NCBI GenBank assembly: GCA_964609145.1
Contig: CAZSRI010000001.1
Span: 21,651 to 82,346 of the forward strand
DNA from: an uncultured Chloroflexota bacterium
GTDB lineage: Bacteria; Chloroflexota; Limnocylindria; P2-11E
Reading direction: 5' to 3'
Length of the DNA stretch: 60,696 bases
The position numbers and the translations under genes were made by a program. Below are positions 4,078 through 60,696 of this stretch, piece after piece (position 1 is the stretch's first letter; every line of letters starts with the position of its first letter). Below the pieces are notes generated by a model. The model had not been told where the DNA came from. It saw only the letters and a program-made list of their open reading frames with translations, and did not search any database.

Positions 4078-4968
4078 ATGCGCATCGCGGACGCGTACCG
4101 CGGGGGTAAACCGGCGTTCTCGTTCGAGTTCTTCCCGCCACGGAACGCTGAGGGGCTGCGACGCCTCCACGACACGATCGCGGCGCTGAAGCCGCTCCGT
4201 CCGGACTTCGTGTCGGTCACGTACGGCGCCGGCGGGAGCACGCGCGAGCTCACGATCGAGCTCGTCACGCAGATCAGGCGCGACACCGGGATCGAGGCGA
4301 TGGCCCACCTCACGTGCGTCGGCCACACCGCCGCCGAGCTCGCGGCGATCCTCGACCGGCTCGACGCCGCCGGCGTCGAGAACGTGATCGCGCTGCGCGG
4401 CGATCCCCCGAAGGGACAGCGCACCTTCATTGCGACCCAGGGCGGGTTCGCGCACGGGATGGAGCTCGCGGCGTTCGTGCGATCGCGCTGGCCGTTCTGC
4501 GTCGCCGGCGCGACGTACCCCGAGGGCCACGTCGAGTCGCCGGACCCGATGGACGACGTCCGCTACGCGAAAGCGAAGCAGGACGCGGGCGTCGACGTCC
4601 TCATCACGCAGCTCTTCTTCGAGCCCGAGGCGTACTTCCGCTTCCTTCGACGAGCGCGCGCGGCCGGGGTCACCGTGCCGATCGTCCCCGGCGTCATGCC
4701 GATCACGGCGGCGTCGCAGCTCTCGCCGACCGGCATGTTCGCGCGCTGCGGCGCGACCGTGCCCGGCGCGCTGCGCCGCCGCATCGAGGCCGCGCGCGAC
4801 GACGACGCCGTGCTCGCGATCGGGACCGCGTGGGCGCTGGGGGAGTGCCGCACGCTCCTCGAGGGCGGCGCGCCGGGCATCCACTTCTACACGCTGAACC
4901 GCTCGCGCTCGGCGTACGCCGTGTACCGCGGGCTGACCGCATCGGTCCCGGCGGTGGAGGCGCGCTAG
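4078..4968 (+). CDS. metF: 5,10-methylenetetrahydrofolate reductase
   Basis: The N-terminus KPAFSFEFFPPR...FVSVTYGAGGSTR and the 296-aa length are typical of MetF. Confidence 0.9.
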   Translation: MRIADAYRGGKPAFSFEFFPPRNAEGLRRLHDTIAALKPLRPDFVSVTYGAGGSTRELTIELVTQIRRDTGIEAMAHLTCVGHTAAELAAILDRLDAAGVENVIALRGDPPKGQRTFIATQGGFAHGMELAAFVRSRWPFCVAGATYPEGHVESPDPMDDVRYAKAKQDAGVDVLITQLFFEPEAYFRFLRRARAAGVTVPIVPGVMPITAASQLSPTGMFARCGATVPGALRRRIEAARDDDAVLAIGTAWALGECRTLLEGGAPGIHFYTLNRSRSAYAVYRGLTASVPAVEAR

Positions 4969-5044
4969 CGCAACGGCCCGACGCTCTGTGCCGTCGAGGA
5001 AGGCGTGATCGCCCGAGAGCAGCCGACGTCCAGCTCTCGCGGCT

Positions 5045-5977
5045 CTAGCGCCTCTTCTCCTCGAGCTCCTCGAGCGTCTTCGGCCAGTCCTCGCGCAGCA
5101 GCCGCGAGAGCGCGCGGTCCGCGAGGAGCTTGCCGCCCGTCTGGCACGTCGCGCAGTAGTTGGCCTCGTTCTCCGCGTAGCGGATCCGCTGGACCGGGCT
5201 GCCGCATACGGGGCAGGGCTGGCGGTACTTCCCGTGCACCGCCATCTCGGGCCGGAACGCCGTCACCTTCTCCGGGAACCGCTGGCGCGCCTCCGCCACG
5301 AGGCGCTCGGTCCACTCGAACAGCACGTCGCGCGTCGCGATCCACAGCAGCTCGACCTCGTCGCCCGTGAGCGCGCGCGTGAGCCTCGTCGGCGGGAGCT
5401 TCGCGCGGTGGAGGATCTCGTCGCTGTACGCGTTGCCGATCCCGCTGAAGATCGTCGGGTCGGTGAGCGCGCGCTTCAGCGTGTGGCTCTCGCGCCCGAG
5501 CGCCTCGCGGAACGTCGCGAGGTCCGCGTCGAGCGGCTCGATCCCGCCGCGCGCGAACCGCCCGAGCTCCGTGTCGTGCACGAGGTGGAGCGACGCGCGC
5601 TTCGTCGCGTTCGCCTCCGTGAGCAGGAGCGTCGCGTGGTCGAGGTCGAGCGCGGCATGGCCGACGCGAGCCGGGATCCGAGCGGCCTTCTCGCGCCAGT
5701 GGAACCGGCCGGCGATCATGAGGTGGACGACGAGCGCGAGGCCGCCAGAGGCGGGGGTGGAGGGGGGCGGAGCCCCCTGCGATGGACGGAGCTCGAGGAC
5801 GATGCGCTTCCCGAGGCGGTGAACGCCCGTCACGCGGTATCCCTCGGCCGCCGAGATCGGGGGGTCGAACGTGCGGAGGACGATGGGGCTCGCGATCCGC
5901 ACGCGCTCGAGCACGTGCCCGACGACGTTCCGCCGCAGCGCTTCGAGGTACGCCTCGACGTCGGGCAGCTCAGGCAT
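5045..5977 (-). CDS. Fpg/Nei-family DNA glycosylase / AP lyase
   Basis: The internal start gives MPELPDVE (catalytic Pro2/Glu3). The C-terminus carries the zinc finger CPVCGSPV...YCATCQ. The upstream part of ORF 5045..6433 is Arg/Ser-rich junk. The gene carries a ~12-aa loop insertion encoded by element E2. Confidence 0.85.
   Translation of the reverse strand: MPELPDVEAYLEALRRNVVGHVLERVRIASPIVLRTFDPPISAAEGYRVTGVHRLGKRIVLELRPSQGAPPPSTPASGGLALVVHLMIAGRFHWREKAARIPARVGHAALDLDHATLLLTEANATKRASLHLVHDTELGRFARGGIEPLDADLATFREALGRESHTLKRALTDPTIFSGIGNAYSDEILHRAKLPPTRLTRALTGDEVELLWIATRDVLFEWTERLVAEARQRFPEKVTAFRPEMAVHGKYRQPCPVCGSPVQRIRYAENEANYCATCQTGGKLLADRALSRLLREDWPKTLEELEEKRR
5751..5782 (-). repeat. 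G/C-run hairpin element E2, in-frame inside the fpg-like gene
   Basis: The reverse complement TCGCAGGGGGCTCCGCCCCCCTCCACCCCCGC matches 34391-34419 at 28 of 29 nt. It is translated as SQGAPPPSTPA. Confidence 0.85.
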
Positions 5978-5987
5978 CTGACACACA

Positions 5988-7085
5988 ATGTCACCCACCG
6001 TGGTGGACGACGTCCTCGAAGAGGTGCGAGAGCGCATCCGCGCCAAGCGCGAGTCGGGCGTGTACGGGCCCGAGGTCGAGGCGGCGCTGCGGCTCCCGCT
6101 CCCCGGCGGCCGGCCGCTCTTCAGCGCGGAGCTCGGCGACCCGTTCCCGGCGCTGCGCGACGCGATCGACGAGCGCGTCGAGTACGACCCGCGCAGCCGC
6201 AAGCCGTTCGTCGGGCCGGTCGTCACGGCCGCGCGGCGCGTCGTCATGGGGCTCGCGCGCTGGTGGCTCGCGGCGATGGGGGAGCGCCAGGAGCGCATCG
6301 ACCGCCTCGCGTTCCGCGCCCTGCTCGACCTGCGCGAGCGCCCGAACCCGGGCTTCGACGAGCGCCTCCGCCGCCTCGAGACGGAGTGGGCACGCTTCCG
6401 CCGCGACCTCGTGGCGGCGGACCTGCACAGCACCTACTTCCAGGCGCGCTTCGGCGGCGACGAGCCCGTCATCCGCGAGCAGTCGGAGCGCTTCCTCGAC
6501 CTGTACCGCGGCCGCCACCGCGTCCTCGACCTCGGGAGCGGCCGCGGGATCTTCCTCGACCTCGTGCGCGAGCAGGGGATCGGCGCGTACGGCGTCGACC
6601 TCGACCCGCGGACTATCGGGATCGCGCGCGGCAAGGGCCTCGAGGTCGTCGAGGCCGACGCGCTCGCGCACCTGCGGGCGCTCGCGCCGAGCGCGATCGA
6701 CGGCGTGTACGCGCGCCACCTCGCCGAGCACGTCCTCCCCGGCGAGCTCGTCGCGATCCTGCGCGAGAGCCGCCGCGTCCTCGCGCCCGGGTCGCCCGTC
6801 GTCTTCGTGACGCCGAACCCCTCGACGCTCACCGTCGGCGCGCACACGTTCTGGCTCGACCCGGGGCACATCCGGCCGATCCCCGCGGAGCTCTTCCGCT
6901 TCCTCCTCGAGGTCGAGGGCTACGAGGACGTGCGGGTCGTGACGTTCGAGCCGACGCAGGGCGCCAAGCTCGCCGAGTCGGGCGACGACGCCGCGCGCGC
7001 GAACGCGCGCATGCTGAACGAGCTGCTCTTCGGCGACCGCGACTACGCGGTCATCGGGCACGCGCCGTTCGTGGCCAAGGCGTGA
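5988..7085 (+). CDS. SAM-dependent methyltransferase with a long helical N-terminal extension
   Basis: The C-terminal half has RVLDLGSGRGIF...DGVYARHLAEHV...LAPGSPVVFVTPN. About 170 N-terminal residues are Arg/Glu/Leu-rich. It diverges from fpg with only a 10-bp gap. Confidence 0.75.
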   Translation: MSPTVVDDVLEEVRERIRAKRESGVYGPEVEAALRLPLPGGRPLFSAELGDPFPALRDAIDERVEYDPRSRKPFVGPVVTAARRVVMGLARWWLAAMGERQERIDRLAFRALLDLRERPNPGFDERLRRLETEWARFRRDLVAADLHSTYFQARFGGDEPVIREQSERFLDLYRGRHRVLDLGSGRGIFLDLVREQGIGAYGVDLDPRTIGIARGKGLEVVEADALAHLRALAPSAIDGVYARHLAEHVLPGELVAILRESRRVLAPGSPVVFVTPNPSTLTVGAHTFWLDPGHIRPIPAELFRFLLEVEGYEDVRVVTFEPTQGAKLAESGDDAARANARMLNELLFGDRDYAVIGHAPFVAKA

Positions 7086-7088
7086 ACC

Positions 7089-7121
7089 GGGGGGTGGAAG
7101 GGGGGCAGCGCCCGCCTGCGA
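7089..7121 (-). repeat. G/C-run hairpin element E3 (diverged), intergenic
   Basis: The reverse complement TCGCAGGCGGGCGCTGCCCCCCTTCCACCCCCC shares both ends with E2 and E8. It lies between the methyltransferase stop (7085) and the GT start. Confidence 0.7.
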
Positions 7122-7159: not shown

Positions 7160-8209
7160 GTGCACCAGTTCCACCCCGTACTCGCGCCGGGCGACGCGAT
7201 GAGCGCGCACGTGTTCGCGCTGCGCGAGCGGATCCGCGAGTGGGGCTATGAGTCGTACGCCTACGCGGTCGAGGTGAAGCCCGGGGTGACGGGCGCGCTG
7301 TCGTACCGCCGGCTCTTCCGCGCGGTGAGGCCGAACGACCTGCTCATCCTCCACTTCTCGATAGGCCACGAGGCCTTCGACCGCCTCGCGCGGCTCGAAG
7401 CGCGGAAGGTCCTCGTCTATCACAACGTCACGCCGCCGCAGTTCTTCAGCGGGATCAACGACCACGCCGCGGTGCACGCGCGCCTCGGGCTGCGCCAGCT
7501 CGCCGGGCTCGCGGCGCACGTCGACCTCGCGATCGGCGTGTCCGAGTTCGACCGCAACGACCTCGCCGAGGTCGGCTTCACGAACACGGCGACCGTGCCG
7601 ATCCTCATCGATTGGTCGCGGTACGACGTCGCGCCCGACGACGGCGTCCTCGCCGCGCTCGCGCGGCCACGCACGCGGATCCTTTTCGTCGGCCGCATCT
7701 CGCCGAACAAGCGCCAGGACGACCTCATCCGGATGCTCGCGTACTACCGCGCGTGCGTCGACGCGGACGCGCAGCTGTTCCTCGTCGGGTCGTACCGCGA
7801 CCAGCCGCAGTACCACGCGCGCTGCGCGGCGCTGCGCGACGCGCTGGATCTGGGGACCGCGGTCACGTTCACGGGGCCCGTGAGCATGGGCGCGCTCGTC
7901 GCGTACTACCGCAGCGCGTCGGTGTTCTGCTCGCTCTCGGAGCACGAGGGCTTCGGCGTGCCGCTCCTGGAGGCGATGCGCTTCGAGCTGCCGATCGTCG
8001 CGTACGAGGCCGCGGCCATCGGCGAGACGCTCGACGGCGCGGGGGTGAGGCTGCCGCGCAAGGACCTCGCCGAGGCGGCCGAGGCGTGCGCGCTCGTCGT
8101 CGAGCGCGCCGATCTGCGCGATCGGCTCATCGAGGCGGGCACGCGCCGCGTCGCCGACTTCTCCACGGATGCCGTGGCGCGCCGCACGCGCGAGGTGCTC
8201 GGTCTATGA
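7160..8209 (+). CDS. Glycosyltransferase, GT4-like (GT-B fold)
   Basis: Contains RISPNKRQDDLI and SEHEGFGVPLLEAM (EX7E-type motif). The GTG 7160 start was chosen because VHQFHPVLAPGDA aligns with AYQFVATAAYGDA at the N-terminus of the next gene. ATG 7199 is the alternative start. Confidence 0.75.
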   Translation: MHQFHPVLAPGDAMSAHVFALRERIREWGYESYAYAVEVKPGVTGALSYRRLFRAVRPNDLLILHFSIGHEAFDRLARLEARKVLVYHNVTPPQFFSGINDHAAVHARLGLRQLAGLAAHVDLAIGVSEFDRNDLAEVGFTNTATVPILIDWSRYDVAPDDGVLAALARPRTRILFVGRISPNKRQDDLIRMLAYYRACVDADAQLFLVGSYRDQPQYHARCAALRDALDLGTAVTFTGPVSMGALVAYYRSASVFCSLSEHEGFGVPLLEAMRFELPIVAYEAAAIGETLDGAGVRLPRKDLAEAAEACALVVERADLRDRLIEAGTRRVADFSTDAVARRTREVLGL

Positions 8210-10434
8210 AGCTCGAGCGCGCGTACCAGTTCGTCGCGACCGCGGCGTACGGCGACGCGATCGGCGGCGACGTCTTCGAGCTGCAGCGGCTCTTCTGGAA
8301 GCGCGGCGTCGCGAGCGAGGTCTTCGCGCAGGAGGCGCGCACGCCGATCGCGCCGTTCGTCCGCCCCTGGCACGACCTGCACGCGGAGCCGGTGGACGCA
8401 TCCGCGCTCCTCGTCCACGTCTCGATGGGGAACGACGCCCTCTCCGAGGTCGCGCGGCTGCCGCACCGCAAGGCCGTCGTCTACCACAACATCACGCCGG
8501 CTCGGTTCTTCGAGGGGATCAGCGAGCAGCTCCTCGCGCACAGCCGCCTCGGGCGCGAGCAGCTGCGCGAGCTCGCGACGTCCGCGGAGCTGGGGATCGC
8601 CGACAGCGAGTTCAACCGCCAGGAGCTCGAGGCCGTCGGCTACGCGCGCACCGCCGTCGTCCCGATCCTCGTCGACCCGCGCGCGTTCGACGTCGAGCCG
8701 GATCCCGCGACGGTCGCCGAGCTCGCCGACGAGCGCACCGACGTCCTCGTCGCGGGCCAGATCCTCCCGCAGAAGGCGATCCTCGACGTGCTCGACGGAT
8801 TCGCGCGATACCGCGAGAGCGACCCGACCGCGCGCCTGCACCTCGTCGGCACGACCGCGATGTCGGGACCGTACCTCGACCGCGTACGCGAGCGGACCAG
8901 CCGGCTCGGGATCGGCGGCGCCGTGCGCCTCACCGGCGCCGTCTCGATCGAGCGGTACGTCGCGTACTTCCGCGGCTCGACGCTGCTCCTCACGCTCTCC
9001 GACCACGAGGGCTTCTGCGTGCCGCTCCTCGAGGCGATGCGCGCGGGGCTGCCCATCGTCGCGCACGCGGCGGGCGCCACGCCCGAGACGCTCGGCGACG
9101 CGGGGATCCTCCTCGAGCGGAAGTCGCCAGACCTCGTCGCCGCGGCGCTCGAGCGCGCGGTGCGCGACCAGGACCTCCGCCGCGATCTCGTCGAGAAAGG
9201 GCGCCGCCGGCTCGAGGACTTCGCGGCCCCGCGCGTGGCCGAGCGGCTCGGGCGGGCGCTCGCGACGGTAGGGTGGGAGCTGCCGCCCGAGCGGACGCGC
9301 CGCGTGACCGTGCTCTCGAGCGACCAGCGCTGCGGGATCCACCACTACGCGCTCGCCGTCTGCGACGGGCTGCGCGCGAACGGCCACGAGGTGACGTTCG
9401 TCGGCGTCCGCCACCTCGACACCGGCGACCTCTACCGGAAGGTCGGCGGGATCGCGAAGGGTGAGACCGTGCTCGTCGAGCACGAGGCCGGGATCTTCCG
9501 CGACGTGCCGTTCGTGCGCGTCCTGCTCGACCTGAAGCGCCGGGGACACCGGATCGTGCTCTCGCTCCACGAGCTCGAGCCCGAGAAGTTCCATCACTAC
9601 CGGAGGCTGTCCGCGGCGCTCCATTACCGGCCGCGCTTCCGGTGGTGGATCGAGGCGGGCCGCGCGTTCTGGGTCGCGGCACGGATCGCCAACTGGTTCG
9701 TGCGCTACAGGGCCGTGCTCGGCCTCATGGGGTCGCTGCCCGACCGGCTCGTCGTGCACTCGTCGCGCTCCGGCTACTGGCTCGACCTCCTCACGCACGA
9801 CGCGGGCAAGCGCGACGAGTTCCCGCTCGCGCTCATGCCGATCGAAGAAGAGCGTGGGGGGGCTCTGCCCCCCCACGTGCCCCCCCGTCATGCCGCGGCA
9901 AAGCGCGAGCTCCGGAGGAGCCTCGGGCTGCCGGAGGACGCGTTCATCTTCATTTCGCCGGGGTTCTTCTTCCCGCGCAAGCGATACCTCGAGGTGATCG
10001 GCGCGCTGCCGGACGACGCCGTGCTCGTGCTCTCGGGCACGCGCTCCGACCGCGAGCCCGAGTACTTCGACCGCGTGCTCGAGGCCGCCAAGGCGAAGCC
10101 GAACGTGGTCGTGAACACCGACTACGACTCGATGGGGCGGTACGTCGCCGCGTCCGACGCCGTCGTGCTCTTCTACGACGACGTCTTTCAGAGCGCGATC
10201 GTCACTCAGGCCGTGTGGGCGGGCTTGCCGTGCATCTTCTCCAGCACGCCGGGCCTCCGGCTCTTCCACGGCGCCGGGCTCGTCGCGCGCGACACCGACG
10301 AGCTGCGCCGGCACATGGAGGCGATCCGCGAGCCCGACACGTACGAGCGCCTGCGCCGCGGCGTGAGCGTGCTGCGGCGGATGCTCGCGCCGGAGCGGGT
10401 CGTGGCTCGGTACCTCGTCGGCGTCGGCGGGTAG
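8206..10434 (+). CDS. Two-domain glycosyltransferase (N-terminal GT4 module paralogous to 7160..8209, plus a second GT-B-like module)
   Basis: 742 aa. The first module carries SDHEGFCVPLLEAM. The second module starts around RRVTVLSSDQRCGIHHY. The ATG overlaps the upstream stop (ATGA at 8206-8209). Confidence 0.75.
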   Translation: MKLERAYQFVATAAYGDAIGGDVFELQRLFWKRGVASEVFAQEARTPIAPFVRPWHDLHAEPVDASALLVHVSMGNDALSEVARLPHRKAVVYHNITPARFFEGISEQLLAHSRLGREQLRELATSAELGIADSEFNRQELEAVGYARTAVVPILVDPRAFDVEPDPATVAELADERTDVLVAGQILPQKAILDVLDGFARYRESDPTARLHLVGTTAMSGPYLDRVRERTSRLGIGGAVRLTGAVSIERYVAYFRGSTLLLTLSDHEGFCVPLLEAMRAGLPIVAHAAGATPETLGDAGILLERKSPDLVAAALERAVRDQDLRRDLVEKGRRRLEDFAAPRVAERLGRALATVGWELPPERTRRVTVLSSDQRCGIHHYALAVCDGLRANGHEVTFVGVRHLDTGDLYRKVGGIAKGETVLVEHEAGIFRDVPFVRVLLDLKRRGHRIVLSLHELEPEKFHHYRRLSAALHYRPRFRWWIEAGRAFWVAARIANWFVRYRAVLGLMGSLPDRLVVHSSRSGYWLDLLTHDAGKRDEFPLALMPIEEERGGALPPHVPPRHAAAKRELRRSLGLPEDAFIFISPGFFFPRKRYLEVIGALPDDAVLVLSGTRSDREPEYFDRVLEAAKAKPNVVVNTDYDSMGRYVAASDAVVLFYDDVFQSAIVTQAVWAGLPCIFSSTPGLRLFHGAGLVARDTDELRRHMEAIREPDTYERLRRGVSVLRRMLAPERVVARYLVGVGG
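9853..9885 (+). repeat. G/C-run hairpin element E4, in-frame inside the two-domain GT
   Basis: Sequence CGTGGGGGGG-CTCTG-CCCCCCACG-TG-CCCCCCC, translated RGGALPPHVPP. Confidence 0.8.
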
Positions 10435-10547: not shown

Positions 10548-10608
10548 AGAGGTGTGCGAGGCGGCGAGAGATCGGGCGACGGACCTCCTGATCAGGGGGA
10601 CGAGGATC

Positions 10609-10709
10609 GGCATCAAGTTGACGCCACTTGGCATCAGATCGATGCCGCTTGGCGTTCTACCGCAGCGCGCTTGCATCAAGTTGATGCCGATCGGCACCAG
10701 ATCGGTGCC
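10609..10709. repeat. Array R2: 10 half-sites GGCAYC / GRTGCC in 11/10-bp phase (21-bp period), homologous to R1
   Basis: Half-sites start at 10609, 10620, 10630, 10641, 10651, (10662 degenerate), 10672, 10683, 10693 and 10704. The 3' ~40 nt align with 184-228 at roughly four-fifths identity by hand. Confidence 0.85.
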
Positions 10710-10784
10710 AGTCCGCTCAGTGGCGCGGAGGAGGTCCCCAGGCCGGATGAACGAGTACAGGGAGCGCGCGAAATGACGGGCTGT

Positions 10785-20025: not shown

Positions 20026-20714
20026 CGACCGTCGCGAGCGACGTCCACCCGACGGCGCTCGTCGGATCGAACGTGCGCCTCGGCCGCGGCTCCGTCGTCC
20101 ACGCCTACGCGGTGCTCGGGGTGCCGCCGCGCGGGCGCACCGCGGACCAAGCGCCGCTCGTCATCGGCGAGGGCGCGACGATCCGCGCGTTCACGACGAT
20201 CTACGGCGGGACGACGATCGGCGCGCGCCTCCAGACCGGCCAAGGAGCCTCGATCCGCGAGGACAACGTGATCGGCGACGACGTCTCGGTCGGGACGCAC
20301 GCGTCGCTCGAGTTCGGCAACCGCATCGGGAACAGGGTGCGCATCCACACCGGCTGCTTCCTCGAGCTCGTCACGCTCGAGGACGAGGTCTTCCTCGGCC
20401 CCCACGTCGTCTTCACCGACGACCCGCACCCGCAGTGCCCGGCGTACCTCGACTGCGTGCGCGGCGGGATCGTCCGCCGCCGCGCCCGCGTGGGCGGGAA
20501 CGCGACGATCCTCCCGGGGGTGGAGATCGGCGAGGACGCGCTCGTCGGCGCAGGGAGCGTCGTGCGCACAGCCGTGCGCGCGCGTAGCGTCGTCGCGGGG
20601 GACCCCGCCGTGGCGGTGAAGGGCGACATCCGCGACCTCAAGTGCTTCGCGGGTATCTACCCCCACGCGTACTCCTGGCTGACCGATCTTCCGGACAAGG
20701 AGCCCGCCAGATGA
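20022..20714 (+). CDS. Left-handed beta-helix (hexapeptide) N-acetyltransferase (WbpD/WlbB-like)
   Basis: Hexapeptide repeats run throughout (IGEGATIRAF, IGDDVSVGTH, IGNRVRIHTG, VGGNATILPGVEIGEDALVGAGSVV). ATGA overlap at 20022-20025. Confidence 0.75.
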   Translation: MTTVASDVHPTALVGSNVRLGRGSVVHAYAVLGVPPRGRTADQAPLVIGEGATIRAFTTIYGGTTIGARLQTGQGASIREDNVIGDDVSVGTHASLEFGNRIGNRVRIHTGCFLELVTLEDEVFLGPHVVFTDDPHPQCPAYLDCVRGGIVRRRARVGGNATILPGVEIGEDALVGAGSVVRTAVRARSVVAGDPAVAVKGDIRDLKCFAGIYPHAYSWLTDLPDKEPAR

Positions 20715-21877
20715 CGATGACCAAAGTGAAGACGCAGATCCCGCTCGTGGACCTGCGCGCGAACTACGCGCAGATCAAGGACGAGGTCCGCGCGGCGATC
20801 GACGAGATCCTCGAGGGTATGCAGCTCAACCTCGGCCCGAACGTGCGTGCCTTCGACCAGGAGTGGGCCACGTTCTGCGGCGTGAAGCACGCCGTCGGCG
20901 TGGGCTCCGGGACCGACGCGCTCCAGCTCGCGATCCGCGCGCTCGGCATCGCTCCGGGCGACGAGGTCATCACGGTCTCGCACTCGTTCTTCGCGACGGC
21001 CGAGGCGATCTTCTACTCGGGCGCGCGGCCGATCTTCGTCGACATCGAAGAGCGCACCTTCTGCATCGACGTCGCGCAGGTCGCCGACCGCATCACGCCC
21101 CGCACCAAGGCCATCGTGCCTGTGCACCTCTACGGGCGCACCGCGGACATGAAGCGCCTCCTCGACATCGCGAAGGACGCGCACGTCGCGGTCATCGAGG
21201 ACGCGGCCCAGGCGCACGGCGCGATGCTCGACACCGGCGGCAAGGCGGGCACCGCGGGGACGATGGGGTGCTTCTCCTTCTACTGCAGCAAGAACCTCGG
21301 GGCGTACGGCGAGGCCGGCAGCATCGTGACGAACGACGACGAGCTCGCCGGCGAGCTCCGACAGCTCCGCGAGCACGGCCAGGTGACGCGCTACTACCAC
21401 CCCATCGTCGGCTACAACGCGCGGCTCGACGAGATCCAGGCGGCGGTGCTGCGCATCAAGCTGAAGCACCTCGAGCGCTGGAACGAGCGGCGACGCGCCA
21501 TCGCGCGTCTCTACAACAGGCTTCTCGAGGGCTCCGGCGTCATCACGCCGGAAGACGTGGGCGAGCGGCACGTGTGGCACATCTATGCGATCCGCGTCGA
21601 GGGCGGGAAGCGCGACGCGATGAAGGACTTCCTGGCCGAGCGCGGCGTCGGGACGGGGATCCACTACCCGGTGCCGATCCACATGCAGGAGTCGGCGCAG
21701 TTCCTCGGGTACCGCGCCGGCGAGCTCCCCGTGACGGAGCGCGTGTCGGGCGAGGTCCTCTCGCTCCCGATGTATCCCGAGCTCACCGACGACCAGGCCG
21801 CGTACGTCGCCGACGCCGTGAAAGCGTTCATGACGGGCCGAGGGGGCTTCGCCCCCCCGAGGACCCCCCCATCTTGA
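20711..21877 (+). CDS. DegT/DnrJ/EryC1/StrS-family PLP aminotransferase (WbpE-like)
   Basis: Contains IPLVDLRANYAQIKDEV...GSGTDALQLA...FSFYCSKNLGAYGEAG (PLP lysine context). ATGA overlap at 20711-20714. The C-terminal RGGFAPPRTPPS is encoded by element E6. Confidence 0.85.
   Translation: MTMTKVKTQIPLVDLRANYAQIKDEVRAAIDEILEGMQLNLGPNVRAFDQEWATFCGVKHAVGVGSGTDALQLAIRALGIAPGDEVITVSHSFFATAEAIFYSGARPIFVDIEERTFCIDVAQVADRITPRTKAIVPVHLYGRTADMKRLLDIAKDAHVAVIEDAAQAHGAMLDTGGKAGTAGTMGCFSFYCSKNLGAYGEAGSIVTNDDELAGELRQLREHGQVTRYYHPIVGYNARLDEIQAAVLRIKLKHLERWNERRRAIARLYNRLLEGSGVITPEDVGERHVWHIYAIRVEGGKRDAMKDFLAERGVGTGIHYPVPIHMQESAQFLGYRAGELPVTERVSGEVLSLPMYPELTDDQAAYVADAVKAFMTGRGGFAPPRTPPS
21842..21870 (+). repeat. 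G/C-run hairpin element E6 at a cistron junction
   Basis: Sequence GGGGGC-TTC-GCCCCC-CCGAGGA-CCCCCCC ending 3 nt before the TTG/TGA overlap at 21874-21877. Confidence 0.75.
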
Positions 21878-24673: not shown

Positions 24674-24696
24674 TCGCAGGGGGCTCCGCCCCTACC
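24674..24696 (+). repeat. Truncated G/C-run element E7 at the operon end
   Basis: TCGCAGGGGGCTCCGCCCCTACC shares its first 19 nt with E8. Its hairpin AGGGGC-TCC-GCCCCT lies between convergent stops (24664 and 24692). Confidence 0.7.
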
Positions 24697-31881: not shown

Positions 31882-34800
31882 ATGGTCGACGAGCACGACG
31901 CCTGCGCCCTCGTGGCCGTCGCGCGCAAGGACGCGCGCCCGACGCGCGACGTCCTCGACCTCGCCCTCCACGGTCTGCGATGCCTCCATCACCGCTCGGG
32001 CACGGTCGACGGCGAAGGCGACGGCGCGGGCGTCCTGACGGACATCCCGCGCGACGTGTGGGCCGACCGCGTCGGCGAGCGCGCGTTCGACCCGCGCTTC
32101 GCCGTCGCGCACCTCTTCGTCCCTCCCGCGGCCTCCGACGCCGAGCGGCCGTCGGTGCGCCGGATCCTCCAGCGCCACGGGGTACGCGTCCTCGCCGAGC
32201 GCGAGGACGGCCTCGACACGGCCGTCCTCGGCCCGCATGGCCGCGACGCGGCGCCCCGCTTCTGGCAGCTCGCGCTCCACGTCACCGGGTCGCAGAGCTC
32301 CGGCGCGCGCCGCTTGCACGACGCCTGGTACGACATCGAGCGCACGACGAGCGCGACGGTGGTGAGCCTCTCGCGCCGTAGCGCGGTGTACAAGCTCCGC
32401 GGCGACGCGGCGCAGCTCGCGCGCGCGTACGCCGACCTCGCCGATCCGCGCTTCGCGACCTCCATGGCGTTCGGGCACAACCGCTACGCGACGAACACGA
32501 CGACGAGCTTCGAGCGCGTTCAGCCGTTCCCCGCGATCGCACACAACGGCGAGATCAACACGGTCGAGCGCCTGCGCACCGAGGCGCGCATGCTGCGGCT
32601 CCCGCTGTCGCGCGACGGGAGCGACTCGCAGGACGTCGACGCCGTCGTGCGCGGGCTCGTCAACAGGTACGGGCTCTCCCTCATCGAGGCGATCGAGCTC
32701 CTGTTCCCGCCGATCGTGAACGAGGTGAAGCGCATGGACGCCCCGACGCAGGATCTCTACGTCCACGCGCGCGCCGCGCTCGGGCCGTTCGCGCAGGGGC
32801 CCGCCGCGATCCTCTCGCGCGTCGGCGACACGTGCGTGTTCACCGTCGACGCGCTCGGGCTGCGCCCGCTGTGGCACGTCGAGACGCCCGACGAGCACGT
32901 CTTCGCGAGCGAGCGCGGGTTCGTCCCGCTGGGGCGGTACGCGCGCGACCCGCGGCCGCTCGGGCCCGGCGAGCGCGCGGCGCTCCGCCGGACGCCGGAG
33001 GGGTGGCGGTACCTCGATCACGCGGACGTCCGCGCGCGGTTCGTCGCCGCGCGCGCCGCGCACGGCACGCCCGTCGACGGCGTGCGCGCGCGCATGGAGG
33101 CGGGCGGCCCGGCGGAGGCGCCCGCGCCGGCGGCGCCGCGGCGGGCGCGCGGCATGGGGCGGTGGGAGATCGGCCTCCCGCCCGACGAGGTCGAGGACCT
33201 CACGCAGCGCCGCGAGGCGCTCTTCGCCGCGTTCGGCTGGGAGCCCGACGACGTGCGCATGGCGAAGGCGATGTCCGACACCGGGAGCGAGCCGATCGGC
33301 TCGCTCGGCTACGACGGCCCGCTCGGCGCCCTCACCGCACGGACGATGCTCGCGGACCACATCCACGAGACCGTGGCCGTCGTCACGAATCCCGCGATCG
33401 ACCGCGAGCGCGAGATCGAGCACTTCTCGACGCGCGCCATCGTCGGCCCGCGGCCCGCGGTCCGCGGCCGCGGACCGGTGCGGCCGTGGGTCGAGCTGCG
33501 GACGCCCATCCTCCTCGGCGGCCACGCGCCGGAGACGGGCGTGCGGAGCGCCGACCACCGCGCCACGGCGCGCGCCCTCGGGACGTGGATCCTCGAGGAC
33601 CTCGTGGCCGAGATCGGCGCGCGGTACGCGCGCGGCACGGTCGTGCTCGAGGCCGACCGCGACTGGGAGGAGCACCCGCGCGACGCGCTCGCGCGCATCG
33701 CCGCGGCCGCCTGCCGCGGGGTCCGCCGCGGCTCGCACCTCGTGATCGTCCAGGACCGCCACGTCTTCGAGGAGGGGCGCGCGTGGCTCGACCCGCTCCT
33801 GGCCACGGCGGCGGTGCATCGCGCCCTCGTCGAGGCGCCGGCAGGGTCGGGGTCGCTGCGCCGCGAGTGCGGGATCGTCGTCTCCGCGGGGAGCCTGCGG
33901 AACCTCCACGACGTCGTCCTCGCGCTCGGCCTCGGCGCCGACGCGGTCAACCCCTACCTCCTGCTCGAGCACGCGATCGCGCAGGAGGATCCCGACGCGC
34001 TGCCCGGGCTCGTCGAGGCGCTGCGCAAGGGCATCGAGAAGGTCATCTCGACGCTCGGCATCCACGAGCTGCGCGGCTATGGGCGCCTCTTCTCCGCGAT
34101 CGGCGTCGCGCCCGACGTCGCGCGGCTCCTGGGGGTCCGCGCGTTCTGCGCCGACGAGGGGGTGGGCCTCACGTGGGAGCGCATCGGCGCCGACGGCCTC
34201 GACCGCGCCGCGATGCTGCGCCAGCGGACGCCCGCGCGGCTCGAGCCGCCCTTCCGTATCTACCCGCGCGTGTGGAAGGCGGCGCTCGCGATGGCGAACG
34301 GCGAGACGGCGTACGCCGCGTACGCCGAGAAGCTCGGCGAGCTCGAGCGCGAGCACCCCGTGTCGCTGCGGCACCTCTGGGACCTGCTCGTCGCAGGGGG
34401 CTCCGCCCCCTTCCACCCCCAGGACGTGGACACGAGCGCCGGCGAGCACGCGATGCCCTTCTACATCTCGTCGATGTCGTTCGGCTCGCAGGGCGAGACG
34501 GCGTACCGCGCCTACGCCGAGGCGGCGTTCCGCATGAACACGATCTGCATGAACGGCGAGGGCGGCGAGCTGCCCGACCTCCTCGGCAGGTACCCGAAGA
34601 ACCGCGGGCAGCAGATCGCGTCGGGACGCTTCGGCGTGTCGGCGCTCCTCGCGAACTCGAGCCAGTGGCTCGAGATCAAGATCGGCCAGGGCGCGAAGCC
34701 CGGCGAGGGTGGGCACCTGCCGGCGAAGAAGGTCTCGGAGAAGGTCGCGCTCGCGCGCAACGCGCGCGCGGGCATCGACCTCATCTCGCCGTCGAACAAC

Positions 34801-36432
34801 CACGACATCTACTCGATCGAGGACCTCGCGCAGGTCGCGAGCGAGCTCAAGGTCGTCAATCCGCGCGCGAAGGTGTGCGTGAAGATCCCGGTCACGCCCG
34901 AGGTGGGGATCATCGCGGTCGGGATCGCGAAGTCGGGCGCCGACGTCGTGACGCTGTCGGGCTACGACGGCGGCACCGGCGCCGCGCGCATGCACGCGCT
35001 GCGGCGCGCGGGGTTGCCGGTGGAGATCGGCGTCGCCGAGGCGCACCGCGCGCTCGTGGCGGCCGGGCTGCGCGAGCGCGTCGAGATCTGGGCCGACGGC
35101 GGCGTGAAGAGCGCGCTCGACGTCGCGAAGCTCATGTGCCTCGGCGCCGACCGCTGCGGCTTCGGGACGTTCGCCATGGTGTCGATCGGCTGCACGATCT
35201 GCCGCGGCTGCCAGCTCGACACGTGTCACGTGGGGATCGCGACGCAGATCGAGAGCGCGGCCGAGGCGGCCGCGCGCGGGGTCAAGCGCTTCGAGCCGCA
35301 GGAGTACGAGCGCGCCGTCGCGAACCTGGTGCGGTCGTTCGGCGCGATGCGCCGCGAGCTCGCGGCGATCGCGGCGCGCTGCGGCGTGGCGCGCACGGCG
35401 GACCTCGTCGGGCGGAGCGACCTGCTCGTCCAGGCGCGGGGGCAGGATCGTGTGTCGCTCGCGGAGCTCACGGCACCCGGCTCAGCGCTCGAGCGGGCGA
35501 CGTTGCCTCGGGTCGGGCCTCTCTGGGCTCGGTCGCTCTCCGGGGTCCCCGCGGACGTCGATGGACCGGTGCGCACGGGGACCCACGCTTCCTCGCCAGA
35601 GAGGCCGCGCCCCTCGACCTCGCCCGCTCTCGCGCTGAGCGACGAACGCGGAGAGAGAGTGGCCCTCTCCACTGAGTCGTCTCCTGTTCCCATCGACGCG
35701 ACGCACCGCTTCCTCGGGACGAGCGACTCGGGCGAGATCGCGCGGGCGCGCATCTACGAGAGCGCGGGCGAGATCCGCATCACGTTCGGCGGTGGCGGTG
35801 TCGCGGGGAACGGGGCGGCCGCGTACGCGACGGAAGGGCTCGCGCTCACGATCGCCGGCGGGGCGCAGGACGGCGCCGCGAAGACCGCGCTCGGCGGTGA
35901 CGTGCGCGTGCTGAAGGCGCGGAACGCCGCGGGGGAGTGGGTGGACGGATCCGTCGGAAAGGGTTTCGCCTACGGCGCGCAGCGCGGTCGCTTCATCGTG
36001 CAGGGAAGCGCGGACGCGCGCGCGGGGATCCGGCTGTCGGGCGCCGACGTCGTCATCGGCGGCGATGTGAAGGGCTTCGCGTTCGAGTACATGACGGACG
36101 GGCGCGGCGTCATCCTCGGCGACCCGGGGCGGTGGATCTGCTCGGGCATGTCGGGCGGCGCGGTGTTCCTGCGCCGCGATCCGGCGCACGGCCTCGACGA
36201 GGCGGGGATCAAGGACCGGATCGCCAAGGGCGCGAAGGTCGCGCTTCGTCCGCTGGAGGACGCGGACCGCGCGAGCCTGGCCGAGCTGCTCGCGGCCTAC
36301 GCCGACGCGCTCGCGGCGAGCGGACAGCGCGAGGCGGCCGAGGCCGCAGGCGTGCTCGTCGACGATCCCGATGCGTTCCGCGTCATCAAGCCGGCGGGCG
36401 AGGTCGTGGACCAGTCGATCTCCACGGAGTAG
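31882..36432 (+). CDS. gltB: Glutamate synthase large subunit
   Basis: 1516 aa. The N-terminal Ntn amidotransferase domain starts around DEHDACALVAV. The FMN domain has FYISSMSFGSQG and GEGGHLPAKKV. The C-terminus has the GXGXG beta-helix domain. No small-subunit gene is adjacent. Confidence 0.9.
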   Translation: MVDEHDACALVAVARKDARPTRDVLDLALHGLRCLHHRSGTVDGEGDGAGVLTDIPRDVWADRVGERAFDPRFAVAHLFVPPAASDAERPSVRRILQRHGVRVLAEREDGLDTAVLGPHGRDAAPRFWQLALHVTGSQSSGARRLHDAWYDIERTTSATVVSLSRRSAVYKLRGDAAQLARAYADLADPRFATSMAFGHNRYATNTTTSFERVQPFPAIAHNGEINTVERLRTEARMLRLPLSRDGSDSQDVDAVVRGLVNRYGLSLIEAIELLFPPIVNEVKRMDAPTQDLYVHARAALGPFAQGPAAILSRVGDTCVFTVDALGLRPLWHVETPDEHVFASERGFVPLGRYARDPRPLGPGERAALRRTPEGWRYLDHADVRARFVAARAAHGTPVDGVRARMEAGGPAEAPAPAAPRRARGMGRWEIGLPPDEVEDLTQRREALFAAFGWEPDDVRMAKAMSDTGSEPIGSLGYDGPLGALTARTMLADHIHETVAVVTNPAIDREREIEHFSTRAIVGPRPAVRGRGPVRPWVELRTPILLGGHAPETGVRSADHRATARALGTWILEDLVAEIGARYARGTVVLEADRDWEEHPRDALARIAAAACRGVRRGSHLVIVQDRHVFEEGRAWLDPLLATAAVHRALVEAPAGSGSLRRECGIVVSAGSLRNLHDVVLALGLGADAVNPYLLLEHAIAQEDPDALPGLVEALRKGIEKVISTLGIHELRGYGRLFSAIGVAPDVARLLGVRAFCADEGVGLTWERIGADGLDRAAMLRQRTPARLEPPFRIYPRVWKAALAMANGETAYAAYAEKLGELEREHPVSLRHLWDLLVAGGSAPFHPQDVDTSAGEHAMPFYISSMSFGSQGETAYRAYAEAAFRMNTICMNGEGGELPDLLGRYPKNRGQQIASGRFGVSALLANSSQWLEIKIGQGAKPGEGGHLPAKKVSEKVALARNARAGIDLISPSNNHDIYSIEDLAQVASELKVVNPRAKVCVKIPVTPEVGIIAVGIAKSGADVVTLSGYDGGTGAARMHALRRAGLPVEIGVAEAHRALVAAGLRERVEIWADGGVKSALDVAKLMCLGADRCGFGTFAMVSIGCTICRGCQLDTCHVGIATQIESAAEAAARGVKRFEPQEYERAVANLVRSFGAMRRELAAIAARCGVARTADLVGRSDLLVQARGQDRVSLAELTAPGSALERATLPRVGPLWARSLSGVPADVDGPVRTGTHASSPERPRPSTSPALALSDERGERVALSTESSPVPIDATHRFLGTSDSGEIARARIYESAGEIRITFGGGGVAGNGAAAYATEGLALTIAGGAQDGAAKTALGGDVRVLKARNAAGEWVDGSVGKGFAYGAQRGRFIVQGSADARAGIRLSGADVVIGGDVKGFAFEYMTDGRGVILGDPGRWICSGMSGGAVFLRRDPAHGLDEAGIKDRIAKGAKVALRPLEDADRASLAELLAAYADALAASGQREAAEAAGVLVDDPDAFRVIKPAGEVVDQSISTE
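34391..34420 (+). repeat. G/C-run hairpin element E8, in-frame inside gltB
   Basis: TCGCAGGGGGCTCCGCCCCCTTCCACCCCC, translated (V)AGGSAPFHP. This is a different reading frame from the near-identical copy in the fpg-like gene. Confidence 0.85.
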
Positions 36433-36999: not shown

Positions 37000-37073
37000 C
37001 GGGGTGTAGCTCAGCCTGGTAGAGCGTCTGGTTTGGGACCAGAAGGCCGCCGGTTCGGATCCGGCCACCCCGA
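37000..37073 (+). tRNA. tRNA-Pro (anticodon UGG)
   Basis: Hand-folded cloverleaf: acceptor CGGGGTG/CACCCCG, D-arm GCTC-AGCCTGGTA-GAGC, anticodon arm TCTGG-TTTGGGA-CCAGA, variable AGGCC, T-arm GCCGG-TTCGGAT-CCGGC, discriminator A. No encoded CCA. Confidence 0.9.
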
Positions 37074-41894: not shown

Positions 41895-44189
41895 ATGACG
41901 ACGACGATGGAGCGGGCGCCGCAGGGCGTCCCCGCGAGCGAGGCCGGAACGAAGCGCGACCTGATCGTCACCGGGATGACCTGCGCGTCATGCGTCGCCT
42001 CGGTCGAATCCGCCATCAGGTCGGTGCGGGGGGTCGAGTCCGCCGACGTGAACCTCGCGACCGAGCGCGCGTCGGTCCGCTTCGACGCCGCGCAGGTCGA
42101 GGTCCCCGCGCTGGTGCGCGCGGTCGAGCGCGCCGGTTACGGCGCGCTGCCGGTCGCCGAGGACGAGCGCGAGCGCGCGCTCGAGGAGGAGCGCGAGAAG
42201 GCCGTTCGCGTGAAGCAGCTCGCCGTGCTGCGGCGGCGGCTCGTGATCTCGCTCATCCTCGGCGCGGCGACGATGGCGATCGCCACCGCCGAGTACGTGC
42301 TCCCCGCCCTCAAGGAGGCGGCCTGGAAGCCGTTCCTCATGTTCGCGCTCGCGACCCCGGTGCAGCTGTGGGGCGCGCAGCCCTTCTACCGCAACGCCTG
42401 GTCCGCGGCGCGCCACCGCATGACGAACATGAACACGCTCATCGCCGTCGGCACGACGGCCGCGTACGGCTTTTCGGTGGTCGCGACGTTCTTCCCGTGG
42501 GTCTTCACGAGCGCGGGCCTCGAGCCGCACATCTACTACGAGGTCTCGTCGGTCATCGTCGGCCTCATCCTCCTCGGCCGCTACCTCGAGGCGCGCGCCC
42601 GCGCGCGCACCGGCGACGCGATCCGCGCGCTCCTCGCGCTCGGCGCGAAGACGGCGCGCGTTCGCCGCAAGGGCGGCGTCGAGGAGGAGATCCCCATCGA
42701 GGACCTCCAGGTCGGGGACGTGGTGATCGTGCGTCCGGGCGAGACGATCGCGACGGACGGCGTCGTCCTCGCGGGGGGCTCGTCGGTGGACGAGTCGATG
42801 ATGACCGGTGAGTCGATCCCCGTGGAGAAGGGCCCGGGTGACGACGTCGCCGGCGGCACGATGAACATCACAGGCACATTCCGCTTCCGTGCGACGAAGA
42901 TCGGCAAGGACACCGTCCTCGCGCAGATCGTGCGCATGGTCGAGGAGGCGCAGGCGTCGAAGGCGCCCATCCAGCGGCTCGTCGACCAGGTGTCGTCGGT
43001 CTTCGTGCCGGTCGTGATCCTGCTCGCCACGGCCACGTTCTTCGTCTGGCTCATCTGGGGCCCGCGGCCGTCGCTCACCTACGCGATGACGGCGTTCATC
43101 GCCGTGCTCATCATCGCCTGCCCCTGCGCGCTCGGCCTGGCGACCCCGACGGCGATCATCACCGGGACCGGCCGCGGCGCGACGCGCGGGATCCTCATTC
43201 GCCACGCGCAGGCCCTCGAGCAGGCGCAGGCGGTCCGCATCGTCGCGTGGGACAAGACCGGCACGCTCACCGTCGGGCGGCCGCAGGTGACCGACTTCCT
43301 CGGCTGCGCCGACGTGGGCGACGACGAGGCGCTGCGCCTCATCGCGTCGGCGGAGCGCGTCTCCGAGCATCCGCTCGCGGCGGCCGTGGTCGAGGCGGCG
43401 CGCGAGCGCGGGCTCGCGCTGAGCGAGCCGTCGTCGTTCGAATACACGCCGGGGCAGGGCATCCACGCGACCGTCGACGGCCACGACGTGTGGGTCGGCA
43501 ACCTCGCCTTCACGAAGGGCCGCGGCTGGCAGGACGCGCCCCAGCAGACCCTCGACCGCTACGCGGACGAGGGGAAGACGCCGCTGCTCGCCGCGATCGA
43601 CGGCAAGCCCGGCGCCATCCTGGCGCTCGCGGACGTGCCGAAGGCGGCCGCGGCGGAGGCCATCGCGCAGCTCAAGCGCATGGGCCTGCGCAGCCTGCTC
43701 ATCTCCGGCGACACGACGCGCACGGCTCAGGCGATCGCGAGCAGGCTCGGGATCGACGAGGTCCGCGGCGAGGTGCCGCCCGGAGGCAAGGCGGATCTCG
43801 TCCGCGAGCTGCAGGCCGCCGGCCGGAAGGTCGGAATGGTCGGCGACGGCGTGAACGACGCGCCCGCGCTCGCGCAGGCGGACCTCGGCGTGGCCATGGG
43901 CGGCGGCACGGACGTCGCGATCGCGACCGGCGGCATCGTGCTCGTCGGCGGCGATCCGCGCGGGGTACCGCGCGCGCTGCGCCTCTCGCGGCGTACGCTC
44001 ACCACGATCAAGCAGAACCTGTTCTGGGCGTTCTTCTACAACGTCGCACTCATCCCGCTCGCGGCGGGCGTGGCGTACCCGTTCACCGGATGGCTGCTGT
44101 CGCCGATCCTCGCGGCCAGCGCCATGGCCGTCTCGTCGGTGACGGTCGTCACGAACTCGCTGCGGCTCCGCGCCGCGAAGATCGACTGA
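41895..44189 (+). CDS. copA: Cu(I)-translocating P1B-type ATPase
   Basis: Carries one N-terminal HMA (GMTCASCV), [29 protein letters not shown], plus YN ([10 protein letters not shown]) and M..SS (AMAVSSV) TM signatures of the P1B-1 class. Confidence 0.9.
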
Positions 44190-58833: not shown

Positions 58834-60696
58834 GTGAGCATCGCTGAGACGAGCCGAGCGTCGGTCATGACAGTAGAGCGACCCGAGGCGGTCGCGCCGG
58901 CCGGCGCGAGCGACGCGGCCGCTGAGAGCGAGCGCGAATACCGGCGGCTCATGCGCAGGTGGTGGTTCGGGGCCGCCGTCGGCGTGCCCACGATGCTCCT
59001 GTCGTATCCGTGGCTGCTCCCGGTCCTGCGCGACGTCTTCCCGCGAGGGAGCGTGGCGCTCCATCACCTGTGGGTGGTCATGGGTATCGCGAGCCTCGCC
59101 GTGCTCGCGTACTCGGGGAGCCAGTTCTTCGTCGGTTTCCTCGAGAGCGTCAAGCACCGCTCGGCGACGATGCACACGCTCATCGCCATCGGCACGGGGA
59201 CGGCGTGGGCGTACTCGACGGTCGCGCTCCTGGCCCCGCAGCTCTTCCCCTCCGCCGAGTTCACCGACGTGTACTACGACGTCACCGTCGTCGTCACGGC
59301 CCTCGTGGTCCTCGGGATGGCGATGGAGATCAGGGCGCGCGGCCGCACGAGCGAGGCCATCAAGAAGCTCATCGGTCTCCAGCCGCGCACGGCGCGCGTC
59401 ATCCGCGACGGCGCCGAGGAGACCGTGCCGGTCGAGGACGTGCGGGTCGGCGAGCTCGTGGTCGTGCGTCCGAGCGAGCGCATCCCGCTCGACGGCGCCA
59501 TCGTCAGCGGCTCTTCCGCGGTCGACGAGTCGATGCTCACGGGCGAGTCGATGCCGGTCGACAAGGCCGTCGGCGACGAGGTCATCGGCGCGACGATGAA
59601 CACCCTCGGCTCCTTCACCTTCCGCGTGACGAAGGTCGGCGCCGACACCGCGCTGGCGAGCATCGTGCGCCTCGTCCAGGACGCGCAGGCCACGAAGGTC
59701 CCGATCCAGCGGATCGTCGACCAGGTGAGCCGCTTCTTCACACCGATCGTCGTCATGCTCGCGGTGGCGGGCTTCGTCGTCTGGTACGACCTCGGTCCGG
59801 CGCCCGCGTTCGCCTACGCGACGATCGTCATGGTCACGACGCTCGTCATCGCGTGCCCGTGCGCGCTGGGCATGGCCACGCCGATGTCGCTCACGACGGG
59901 GATCGGCAAGGCGGCGGAGCACGGCGTGCTCATCCGCTCCGGCGAGGCGCTCCAGGGCGCGCAGCGCCTGGACACGGTCGTCCTCGACAAGACCGGGACC
60001 ATCACCAAGGGCGAGCCCTCGCTCACGGACGTCGTACCGTCGTCCTTCGACGAGCGCGAGCTCCTCCGGCTCGCCGCGAGCGCCGAGGCCGGGAGCGAGC
60101 ACCCGCTCGGCCAGGCCATCGTCGCCGGCGCCCGCGCGCGCGGCATCGAGCTCGCCGCCGCCGGGTCCTTCGCCGCCGCGCCCGGCGGCGGGATCGACGC
60201 GGTCGTGGACGGGCGCGACGTCCGCATCGGCAACGAGCGCTACCTCCGCGAGTCGGGCGTCGACCTCGAGGGGCTCCCGGCACCGTGGGCCGTCCTCGCG
60301 GAGGAGGGCAAGACGCCGATGTACGTGGCGATCGACGGGAAGGCCGCCGGCCTCGTGGCGGTCGCCGACACCATCAAGGAGGACTCGGTCGCCGCGATCA
60401 AGCGTCTGCGCGCGCTGGGACTCGAGGTCGCGATGCTGACCGGCGACAACAAGCGCACCGCGAACGCCATCGCGCGCCAGGTCGGCGTCGACCGCGTGCT
60501 CGCGGAGGTCCAGCCCGGCGAGAAGGCGCTCGAGGTGCGCAAGCTCCAGCTCGAGGGCAAGCGCGTCGGGATGGTCGGCGACGGGACGAACGACGCTCCG
60601 GCGCTGACGCAGGCCGACGTCGGCTTCGCCATCGGCTCCGGGACCGACGTGGCCATCGAGGCGGCGGACGTGACGCTCATCGGCGGGAGCCTCAAG
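58834..60696 (+). CDS. P1B-type heavy-metal ATPase lacking an N-terminal HMA domain (3' end beyond the window)
   Basis: Hand translation from GTG 58834 (AGGAGG RBS at 58821-58826) gives [28 protein letters not shown] and GDGTNDAP. The protein enters the TM region after ~40 aa with no CxxC motif. The frame is open to the window end and is absent from the ORF track. Confidence 0.85.

Follow-up and report, generated by a model that had tools for sequence, protein, structure and literature searches.

The stretch of DNA analysed here, referred to as the window, comprises 60,696 nucleotides from an uncultured Chloroflexota bacterium of the class Limnocylindria, with a G+C content of 70–76%. On the minus strand it carries a 310-aa Fpg/Nei-family DNA glycosylase gene, fpg (5045–5977; Pfam Fapy_DNA_glyco PF01149, H2TH PF06831 and zf-FPG PF06827), and on the plus strand a full-length, 1516-aa gene for the glutamate synthase large subunit, gltB (31882–36432). 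The two genes have a 30-nt string in common, TCGCAGGGGGCTCCGCCCCC[C/T]TCCACCCCC, which we assign to a REP-type repeat. The fpg copy lies at 5753–5782 on the minus strand and reads TCGCAGGGGGCTCCGCCCCCCTCCACCCCC, so that its GTGG-tagged strand is the plus strand of the window; the gltB copy lies at 34391–34420 on the plus strand and reads TCGCAGGGGGCTCCGCCCCCTTCCACCCCC. A near-identical element in these two genes had been pointed out in an initial annotation made from the sequence alone. The copies matched at 29 of 30 bases, the likeness ended abruptly at both ends of the element, and no match to the 30-mer arose by chance in 100 dinucleotide-preserving shuffles of the window. The Pfam domains and the full length of gltB likewise agreed with the gene assignments made at that stage.

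The two copies are translated differently. In fpg the element is decoded as TCG CAG GGG GCT CCG CCC CCC TCC ACC CCC (SQGAPPPSTP), and in gltB, one base out of phase, as GCA GGG GGC TCC GCC CCC TTC CAC CCC ((V)AGGSAPFHP), as the initial annotation had read them. The gltB copy is identical to the family consensus described below (30/30 bases), and the fpg copy departs from it by a single base in 30, which leaves the amino acid encoded in the fpg frame unchanged. Because an independent Logan assembly of run SRR5161805 contained the identical fpg insert, the insert is not an artefact of the MAG assembly.

A looser search of the window recovered two further copies, both intergenic. A degenerate copy (TCGCAGGCGGGCGCTGCCCCCCTTCCACCCCCC; 7089–7121, minus strand) starts, in plus-strand coordinates, 4 nt past the TGA stop of a methyltransferase gene (7083–7085), upstream of the next glycosyltransferase gene. 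A partial copy consisting of the 5′ flank and the hairpin (TCGCAGGGGGCTCCGCCCCT; 24674–24693, plus strand) fills the 27-nt gap separating two convergent stop codons. Searching the whole window against Rfam at gathering thresholds gave no match at the repeats, the only match being a tRNA at 37000–37073.

Sites of the repeat in fpg and gltB

The host Fpg protein retains the PELPDVE N-terminal motif, the H2TH domain and all four zinc-finger cysteines; P2, E3, K57 and the four cysteines were invariant in the alignment, and a Foldseek search with the Fpg model returned MutM/Fpg structures at E = 1e-20. Altogether the extra segment spans 42 nt (5747–5788, minus strand; codons R64–S77); where it stands, the empty site has a single GAG codon, so that the turn linking strands 58–65 and 80–85 is 13 residues longer. 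Among the 120 best Fpg homologs, 112 have a tight 3-residue turn here, LE-GD-L (GKRIVxELE-GD-LFLVVHLM), so that the insert is not a feature conserved at the amino-acid level across Fpg/Nei proteins. Sequence alignment with the solved structures 1EE8 and 1TDZ left a 13-residue gap exactly at RPSQGAPPPSTPA. The insertion proposed in the initial annotation therefore stands, with its size corrected from about 12 to 13 residues. Its placement in a loop between beta strands also held: an AlphaFold model built from 37 sequences (mean pLDDT 81) predicted strands at 58–65 and 80–85 and a loop at residues 66–79, with lower confidence in the insert loop than in the rest of the N-terminal domain. Close relatives, whose comparison the initial annotation had suggested as a check, lack the insert; among them is P0009/L192, the nearest to the window at 82% identity, which has the empty site and the same gene order.

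The surroundings of fpg vary between genomes. The fpg and methyltransferase genes are divergent in the window (4078–7085) and in L192 and co-directional in L001, L002, L190 and L193, and these last four have extra genes between MTHFR and fpg. Judged by gene order, the fpg locus was rearranged within the class.

The same repeat, in the same frame, was found at the nucleotide level in two other Fpg genes (P0003/L001 and P0002/L002). Here 36 nt were inserted cleanly, with the two codons on either side left intact, at a point about 9 nt downstream of the site in the window; the empty form GAC|CTG was present in L190 and L191, whose DNA is 86–88% identical to that of L001 and L002. In a neighbour-joining tree calculated without the loop, the window Fpg grouped with the insert-less P0009, and P0002 and P0003 nested among the insert-less P0026, P0027, P0032 and P0037 (90–92% identical). 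This placement among insert-less proteins therefore indicates at least two independent gains of the repeat in the Fpg turn. In other lineages this turn also accommodates four unrelated insertions, and it is therefore permissive; some targeting of the turn by the element is also conceivable. The inserts of P0038 and P0005 in this turn were considered as further copies and rejected, because one is a short duplication of internal sequence and the other is a small hairpin of a different kind.

The gltB copy sits in a hypervariable linker between the central and FMN domains. The stretch that runs from LRH to SSMSFG ranged from 36 to 53 residues across 80 relatives from metagenomes and was almost free in sequence; it measures 40 residues in the window. 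The closest gltB relatives (82–85% identity) have 41 residues, with SGIEDGLAGATDTLA in place of the window's LVAGGSAPFHPQDV, and the net length change is −1 against the closest relative, L110 (41 aa), and +2 against 38-aa homologs. Since the linker is about equal in length, the repeat replaced sequence and was not a net insertion, either through insertion with deletion or through a conversion-like patch. A fuzzy search allowing up to 5 errors found no intact element in the 80 relatives, so the gltB copy could not be traced to a filled/empty ortholog pair; taken together with its perfect match to the consensus, this result indicates a recent event. Degenerate, hairpin-like look-alikes occur at the same spot in L147 (GGCGGCTCCGCCCCCCTC), L119, L113, L134 and L160, and their sequences suggest that the gltB linker, too, may have been hit repeatedly.

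A dispersed repeat family with a REP layout

The 30-mer belongs to a repeat family dispersed in the genomes of certain Chloroflexota (Limnocylindria) from soil and groundwater; copies numbering at least 51 were recovered from some 10 Limnocylindria/Chloroflexota MAGs. The family was scanned with a degenerate pattern against one genome per species, and all copy counts are lower bounds. At least 31 copies were found in MAG JACPEQ01 (GCA_016183435.1; Chloroflexi, groundwater) and at least 11 in MAG DASWDY01 (Candidatus Limnocylindria); among the matches listed, eight further Limnocylindria/Chloroflexota MAGs had single copies, and phyla other than Chloroflexota gave only isolated, loosely fitting single matches. 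One good copy, with a 5-nt loop (TCGCAGGGGGCTGATGGCCCCCTTCCACCCC), was located at 3965–3995 of L025 (Acidimicrobiales MAG JBHENM01), a contig binned to another phylum, and could reflect a mis-binned contig or transfer. The viral contigs scanned gave 0 matches, and the repeat therefore shows no sign of phage origin.

An identical 29-nt core was present in 23 of the 51 non-redundant copies. Variation between the 51 copies was concentrated in the 3-nt loop (TCC in 23, TTC in 8, TCT in 5, and others) around an invariant stem, and conservation faded about 7 nt upstream, past a pyrimidine-rich tract, and 2 nt downstream. Most copies (43/51, ~84%) are intergenic. They often make up the entire stop-to-start spacer, as in the fusA-stop/repeat/ATG-tuf arrangement of L069, and others occupy gaps between convergent stop codons. 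Where translated, the repeat is read in at least three frame/orientation combinations. With multiple, mostly intergenic copies in related genomes and several translations of the same DNA, the initial proposal of spread at the nucleotide level is well borne out.

Flanking target-site duplications did not exceed background, the longest flank repeat averaging 3.63 nt vs 3.49 ± 0.12 nt in shuffled pairings. Inverted doublets at fixed short spacing (REPINs) were absent from the family, in which copies stand alone or in direct tandem; a single inverted pair was seen, in L109, its members lying about 585 nt apart on either side of a leuD-like gene. Direct tandem copies were seen at L042 7242–7320 and L098 3230–3300, spaced about 36 nt.

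On its defining strand the repeat reads (C)GGGGG-GTGG-AA-GGGGGC-GGA-GCCCCC-TGCGA, that is, a G-run, a GT(A/G)G tag, a 6-bp G+C stem with a variable 3-nt loop and a conserved tail, for a length of about 30–38 nt. The string as read in the genes is the reverse complement, and GTGG-AA-GGGGGC-GGA-GCCCCC-TGCGA is the layout of a GT(A/G)G-tagged REP. A hairpin search without any flank requirement found the GTGG tag and tail on 53 of about 65 hairpins, a conservation that is partly by construction because the loci searched had been fetched with a tag-containing pattern. Hairpin stability was no higher than in composition-matched shuffles (z about 0), and therefore hairpin structure alone is no evidence of function.

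In P. fluorescens SBW25 the GI REP is GTGGGAGGGGGCTTGCCCCC, and GT(A/G)G-tagged REPs are mobilised by RAYT Y1 transposases (PMC2817692, PMC3116915, PMC3733652); GTGG variants of the tag have been reported, as have GTAG REPs in Chloroflexi (PMC3733652). The Limnocylindria sequence GTGGAAGGGGGCGGAGCCCCCTGCGA parallels the RAYT-associated SBW25 REP GTGGGAGGGGGCTTGCCCCCGAT so closely that the two are nearly superimposable (PMC2817692 Table 1; PMC3116915 Table 1). Like the GT(A/G)G REPs, which measure 20–40 nt, the repeat is an imperfect palindrome, short and G+C-rich, and shares with them a GTGG tag set two bases away from a 6-bp GGGGGC/GCCCCC stem, which closes a short loop of variable sequence. 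As with those elements, it is dispersed, mostly extragenic and high in copy number, with dozens or more copies per genome lying mostly between unidirectional or convergent genes and without target-site duplications. It differs from the Pseudomonas GI REP in its Limnocylindria host, in the extra conserved G-run 5′ of the tag and in the TGCGA tail. Unlike REPINs, the inverted doublets thought to be the mobile unit in Pseudomonas, its copies occur singly or in direct tandem. A literature search found no publication describing repeats in Limnocylindria.

Two other kinds of element were compared. According to the review that summarises them, Rickettsia palindromic elements (Ogata et al. 2000, reviewed in PMC10969869) are selfish elements that sit in frame in unrelated housekeeping genes and are compatible with fold and function. 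In that account they are about 100–150 bp long and supply a peptide module recognisable in one frame, whereas the Limnocylindria repeat is 30–38 nt long, is read in several frames and both orientations and has three translations (SQGAPPPSTP, AGGSAPFHP and GGGRGQSPLRK), so that in-frame behaviour alone is shared. MITEs are similarly small, non-autonomous and multi-copy, and sometimes give in-frame fusions. However, they measure 70–300 bp and have terminal inverted repeats and target-site duplications, none of which applies to the Limnocylindria repeat, with its length of about 30–38 nt and no excess of flanking direct repeats.

Coding copies, reading frames and accompanying hairpins

In the fetched MAG loci, in-frame copies were found in a prolyl oligopeptidase, where the repeat splits the Peptidase_S9 domain, in DnaE within the DNA_pol3_alpha domain, and in a TPR protein; a copy in RlmN (Radical_SAM domain) lies in reverse orientation. 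Coding copies account for about 16% of the sampled Limnocylindria copies, an unusually high share among those sampled, as opposed to 14/1067 in SBW25 (PMC3116915). Di Nocera et al. 2013 (PMC3733652) documented intragenic REPs, many lying in genes for replication and repair, uvrA and uvrB among them, and these REPs are thought to occupy flexible loops or linkers (PMC3733652). Like them, the copies described here are single in-frame units in known genes, repair and replication genes included (fpg and dnaE). What the present cases add to those examples, in another lineage and with another family sequence, is an orthologous site seen in its empty state, a model of the structure, an independent second entry into one and the same turn, and a bias in reading frame.

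All six frames of the repeat are open, and the frame encoding SQGAPPPSTP was used in 5 of 7 independent coding events; the binomial probability of any single frame reaching 5/7 is about 0.01. This bias is in keeping with selection for a harmless Ser/Gly/Pro peptide.

A companion hairpin, GGCGGC-AAA-GCCGCC followed by TTCTCTCT (a T/C run), often lies directly upstream of the repeat and was seen in L013, L020, L043, L044, L045, L049, L067, L074, L078 and L091. In three genes the companion hairpin and the repeat were inserted jointly, and together they encode AAKPPxLSQGAPPPSTPG. Orthologous companion hairpins show compensatory stem changes (GCGGGC/GCCCGC vs GCCGGC/GCCGGC), as would be expected for a terminator-like structure. 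We also considered the CAT that frequently abuts the element as a start codon, which would make the element a ribosome-binding cassette. This reading holds for some copies (L069 tuf and L099) and was dropped as a general function because elsewhere the CAT bases belong to a conserved purine/pyrimidine tract.

Several other repeated features were noted in the window. A second, looser hairpin family consists of G6–7, 5 nt, G6–7C, a loop and GC5–7, without the GTGG tag. One member (GGGGGGGCTCTGCCCCCCC ACGTG CCCCCCC; 9856–9886, plus strand) is in frame in a 742-aa glycosyltransferase gene (8206–10434) and adds 8 residues absent from three orthologs. Another (GAGGGGGCTTCGCCCCCCC GAGGA CCCCCCC; 21840–21870, plus strand) lies in a DegT-type aminotransferase gene (20642–21877) and encodes its final residues, GRGGFAPPRTPPS up to the stop codon, beyond the end of the Pfam domain; outside the window, members were found at L004 750 and 3490, L044 1238 and L074 1208. 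Arrays resembling those of operators or iterons, built from a ~17-nt palindrome (GGCATCAAGTTGATGCC-like) with a period of 21 nt, occupy 140–225 and 10590–10710; both sites are intergenic and, at a distance of 10.4 kb from each other, enclose the fpg/methyltransferase/glycosyltransferase cluster. Finally, the stretches 42674–43951 and 59409–60686, 16.7 kb apart, are 70–72% identical over at least 250–300 nt and are probably paralogous genes, judging by this similarity.

Origin of the coding copies

We consider it probable, at roughly 80%, that the sequence in fpg and gltB is a copy of a REP-type repeat found in a subset of Limnocylindria, which is occasionally written into genes and persists in frame at permissive sites. 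Copies normally occupy the very short spacers between genes; occasionally one would be written into coding sequence, and it would persist only when in frame and in a permissive surface element. In the window, one copy lies in the tight turn of an N-terminal beta-hairpin of Fpg, where it adds 13 Ser/Gly/Pro-rich residues, and another has overwritten part of the hypervariable interdomain linker of GltB. The encoded peptides would be passengers of a DNA-level event, and the insert may well be functionally neutral for Fpg. The copying may have been carried out in trans by a single-copy, RAYT-like HUH/Y1 transposase with the single-stranded hairpin as its substrate. In the 1.23 Mb of fetched DNA, a crude search for the HUH...YxxNP motif detected no RAYT/Y1 transposase gene. 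The data support a refined form of the initial reading, in which the element is REP-type with its GTGG tag on the opposite strand, the gltB copy is a replacement and the Fpg turn was entered independently elsewhere.

How the coding copies were written is the point at which another explanation carries some weight. Two of the coding events were not clean, the window fpg having 42 nt in place of the 3 nt of a GAG codon and the gltB repeat spanning about the same length as the relatives' linker, and both are explained by recombination or template switching no less well than by transposition. The coding copies might thus not have been transposed at all and might instead derive from another copy by ectopic gene conversion, template switching or illegitimate recombination. 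Such events would use pyrimidine-rich or G/C-run microhomology and would explain the simultaneous loss of host sequence. The lack of target-site duplications and of a transposase in the motif search is in keeping with this explanation, as is the extra upstream CTGCTC that the gltB copy shares with the intergenic copy at 24674. However, HUH-type transposition likewise leaves no duplications, and because linkers and turns evolve fast, later deletions could mimic replacement. The insertion in L001 and L002, moreover, was clean and lay between intact codons, and near-identical copies in their hundreds across species would be easier to account for by an enzyme recognising the tag and hairpin. We regard an origin by recombination alone as unlikely, though it deserves serious consideration.

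Returning to the REP-type reading, it is improbable, on present evidence, that the repeat or its enzyme prefers particular DNA contexts and so hits the same turns and linkers (the Fpg beta-turn and the GltB linker) repeatedly in different lineages, or that the fpg and dnaE copies are kept as cis signals. If this were true, the REP family would, in an uncultured phylum of high G+C content, repeatedly generate variation in protein loops in a semi-targeted way.

A further proposal is that the repeat as a whole is a selected cis-acting signal, whose presence in genome-maintenance genes (fpg and dnaE) is favoured and not merely tolerated. Such a signal might serve in DNA uptake or recognition, form a terminator or a hairpin that stabilises mRNA, or act as a ribosome-binding cassette. 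The core and flanks are highly conserved across species around a variable loop, many copies lie exactly between a stop and the next start, the G-runs resemble Shine-Dalgarno sequences, the Fpg turn was entered twice by the same repeat, and intragenic REPs are often found in replication and repair genes (PMC3733652). Against this, the repeat occurs in both orientations in all types of intergenic context, its hosts also include a peptidase, a TPR protein, RlmN and GltB, and the four unrelated insertions in the Fpg turn point to permissiveness. Between L001 and L002, 33 of the 36 bases of the insert were identical, compared with 88% identity over the whole gene; the insert and the remainder of the gene have diverged to a similar degree, which gives no support for a cis-acting role of the fpg copy. 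A selected cis-acting role is possible for the intergenic copies, and as an explanation of the coding copies it seems very improbable.

Convergence of independent Gly/Pro/Ser-rich loops on similar DNA under extreme G+C content, or an assembly chimera, is effectively refuted: although the window has 70–76% G+C and a second type of G-run/C-run hairpin also occurs, the 29/30 match never appeared in shuffles, the string recurs at dozens of intergenic sites elsewhere, the peptides differ because the frames differ, the independent assembly was identical, and the reading frame was kept in each gene.

An intragenic REP is an already known kind of event, and what is new here is the family member and the lineage, with no new mechanism. 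Limnocylindria are abundant in soil and fresh water; in these data they have no cultured representatives and very short intergenic spacers. The findings extend GTGG-tagged REPs and their intragenic behaviour to this class and provide a well-resolved case of selfish or structural repeat DNA turned into protein sequence, in which the preferred reading frame points to filtering of the encoded peptides. In practice, such repeats make protein families look more diverse in their loops than they are, can break up assemblies and are usable as lineage markers.
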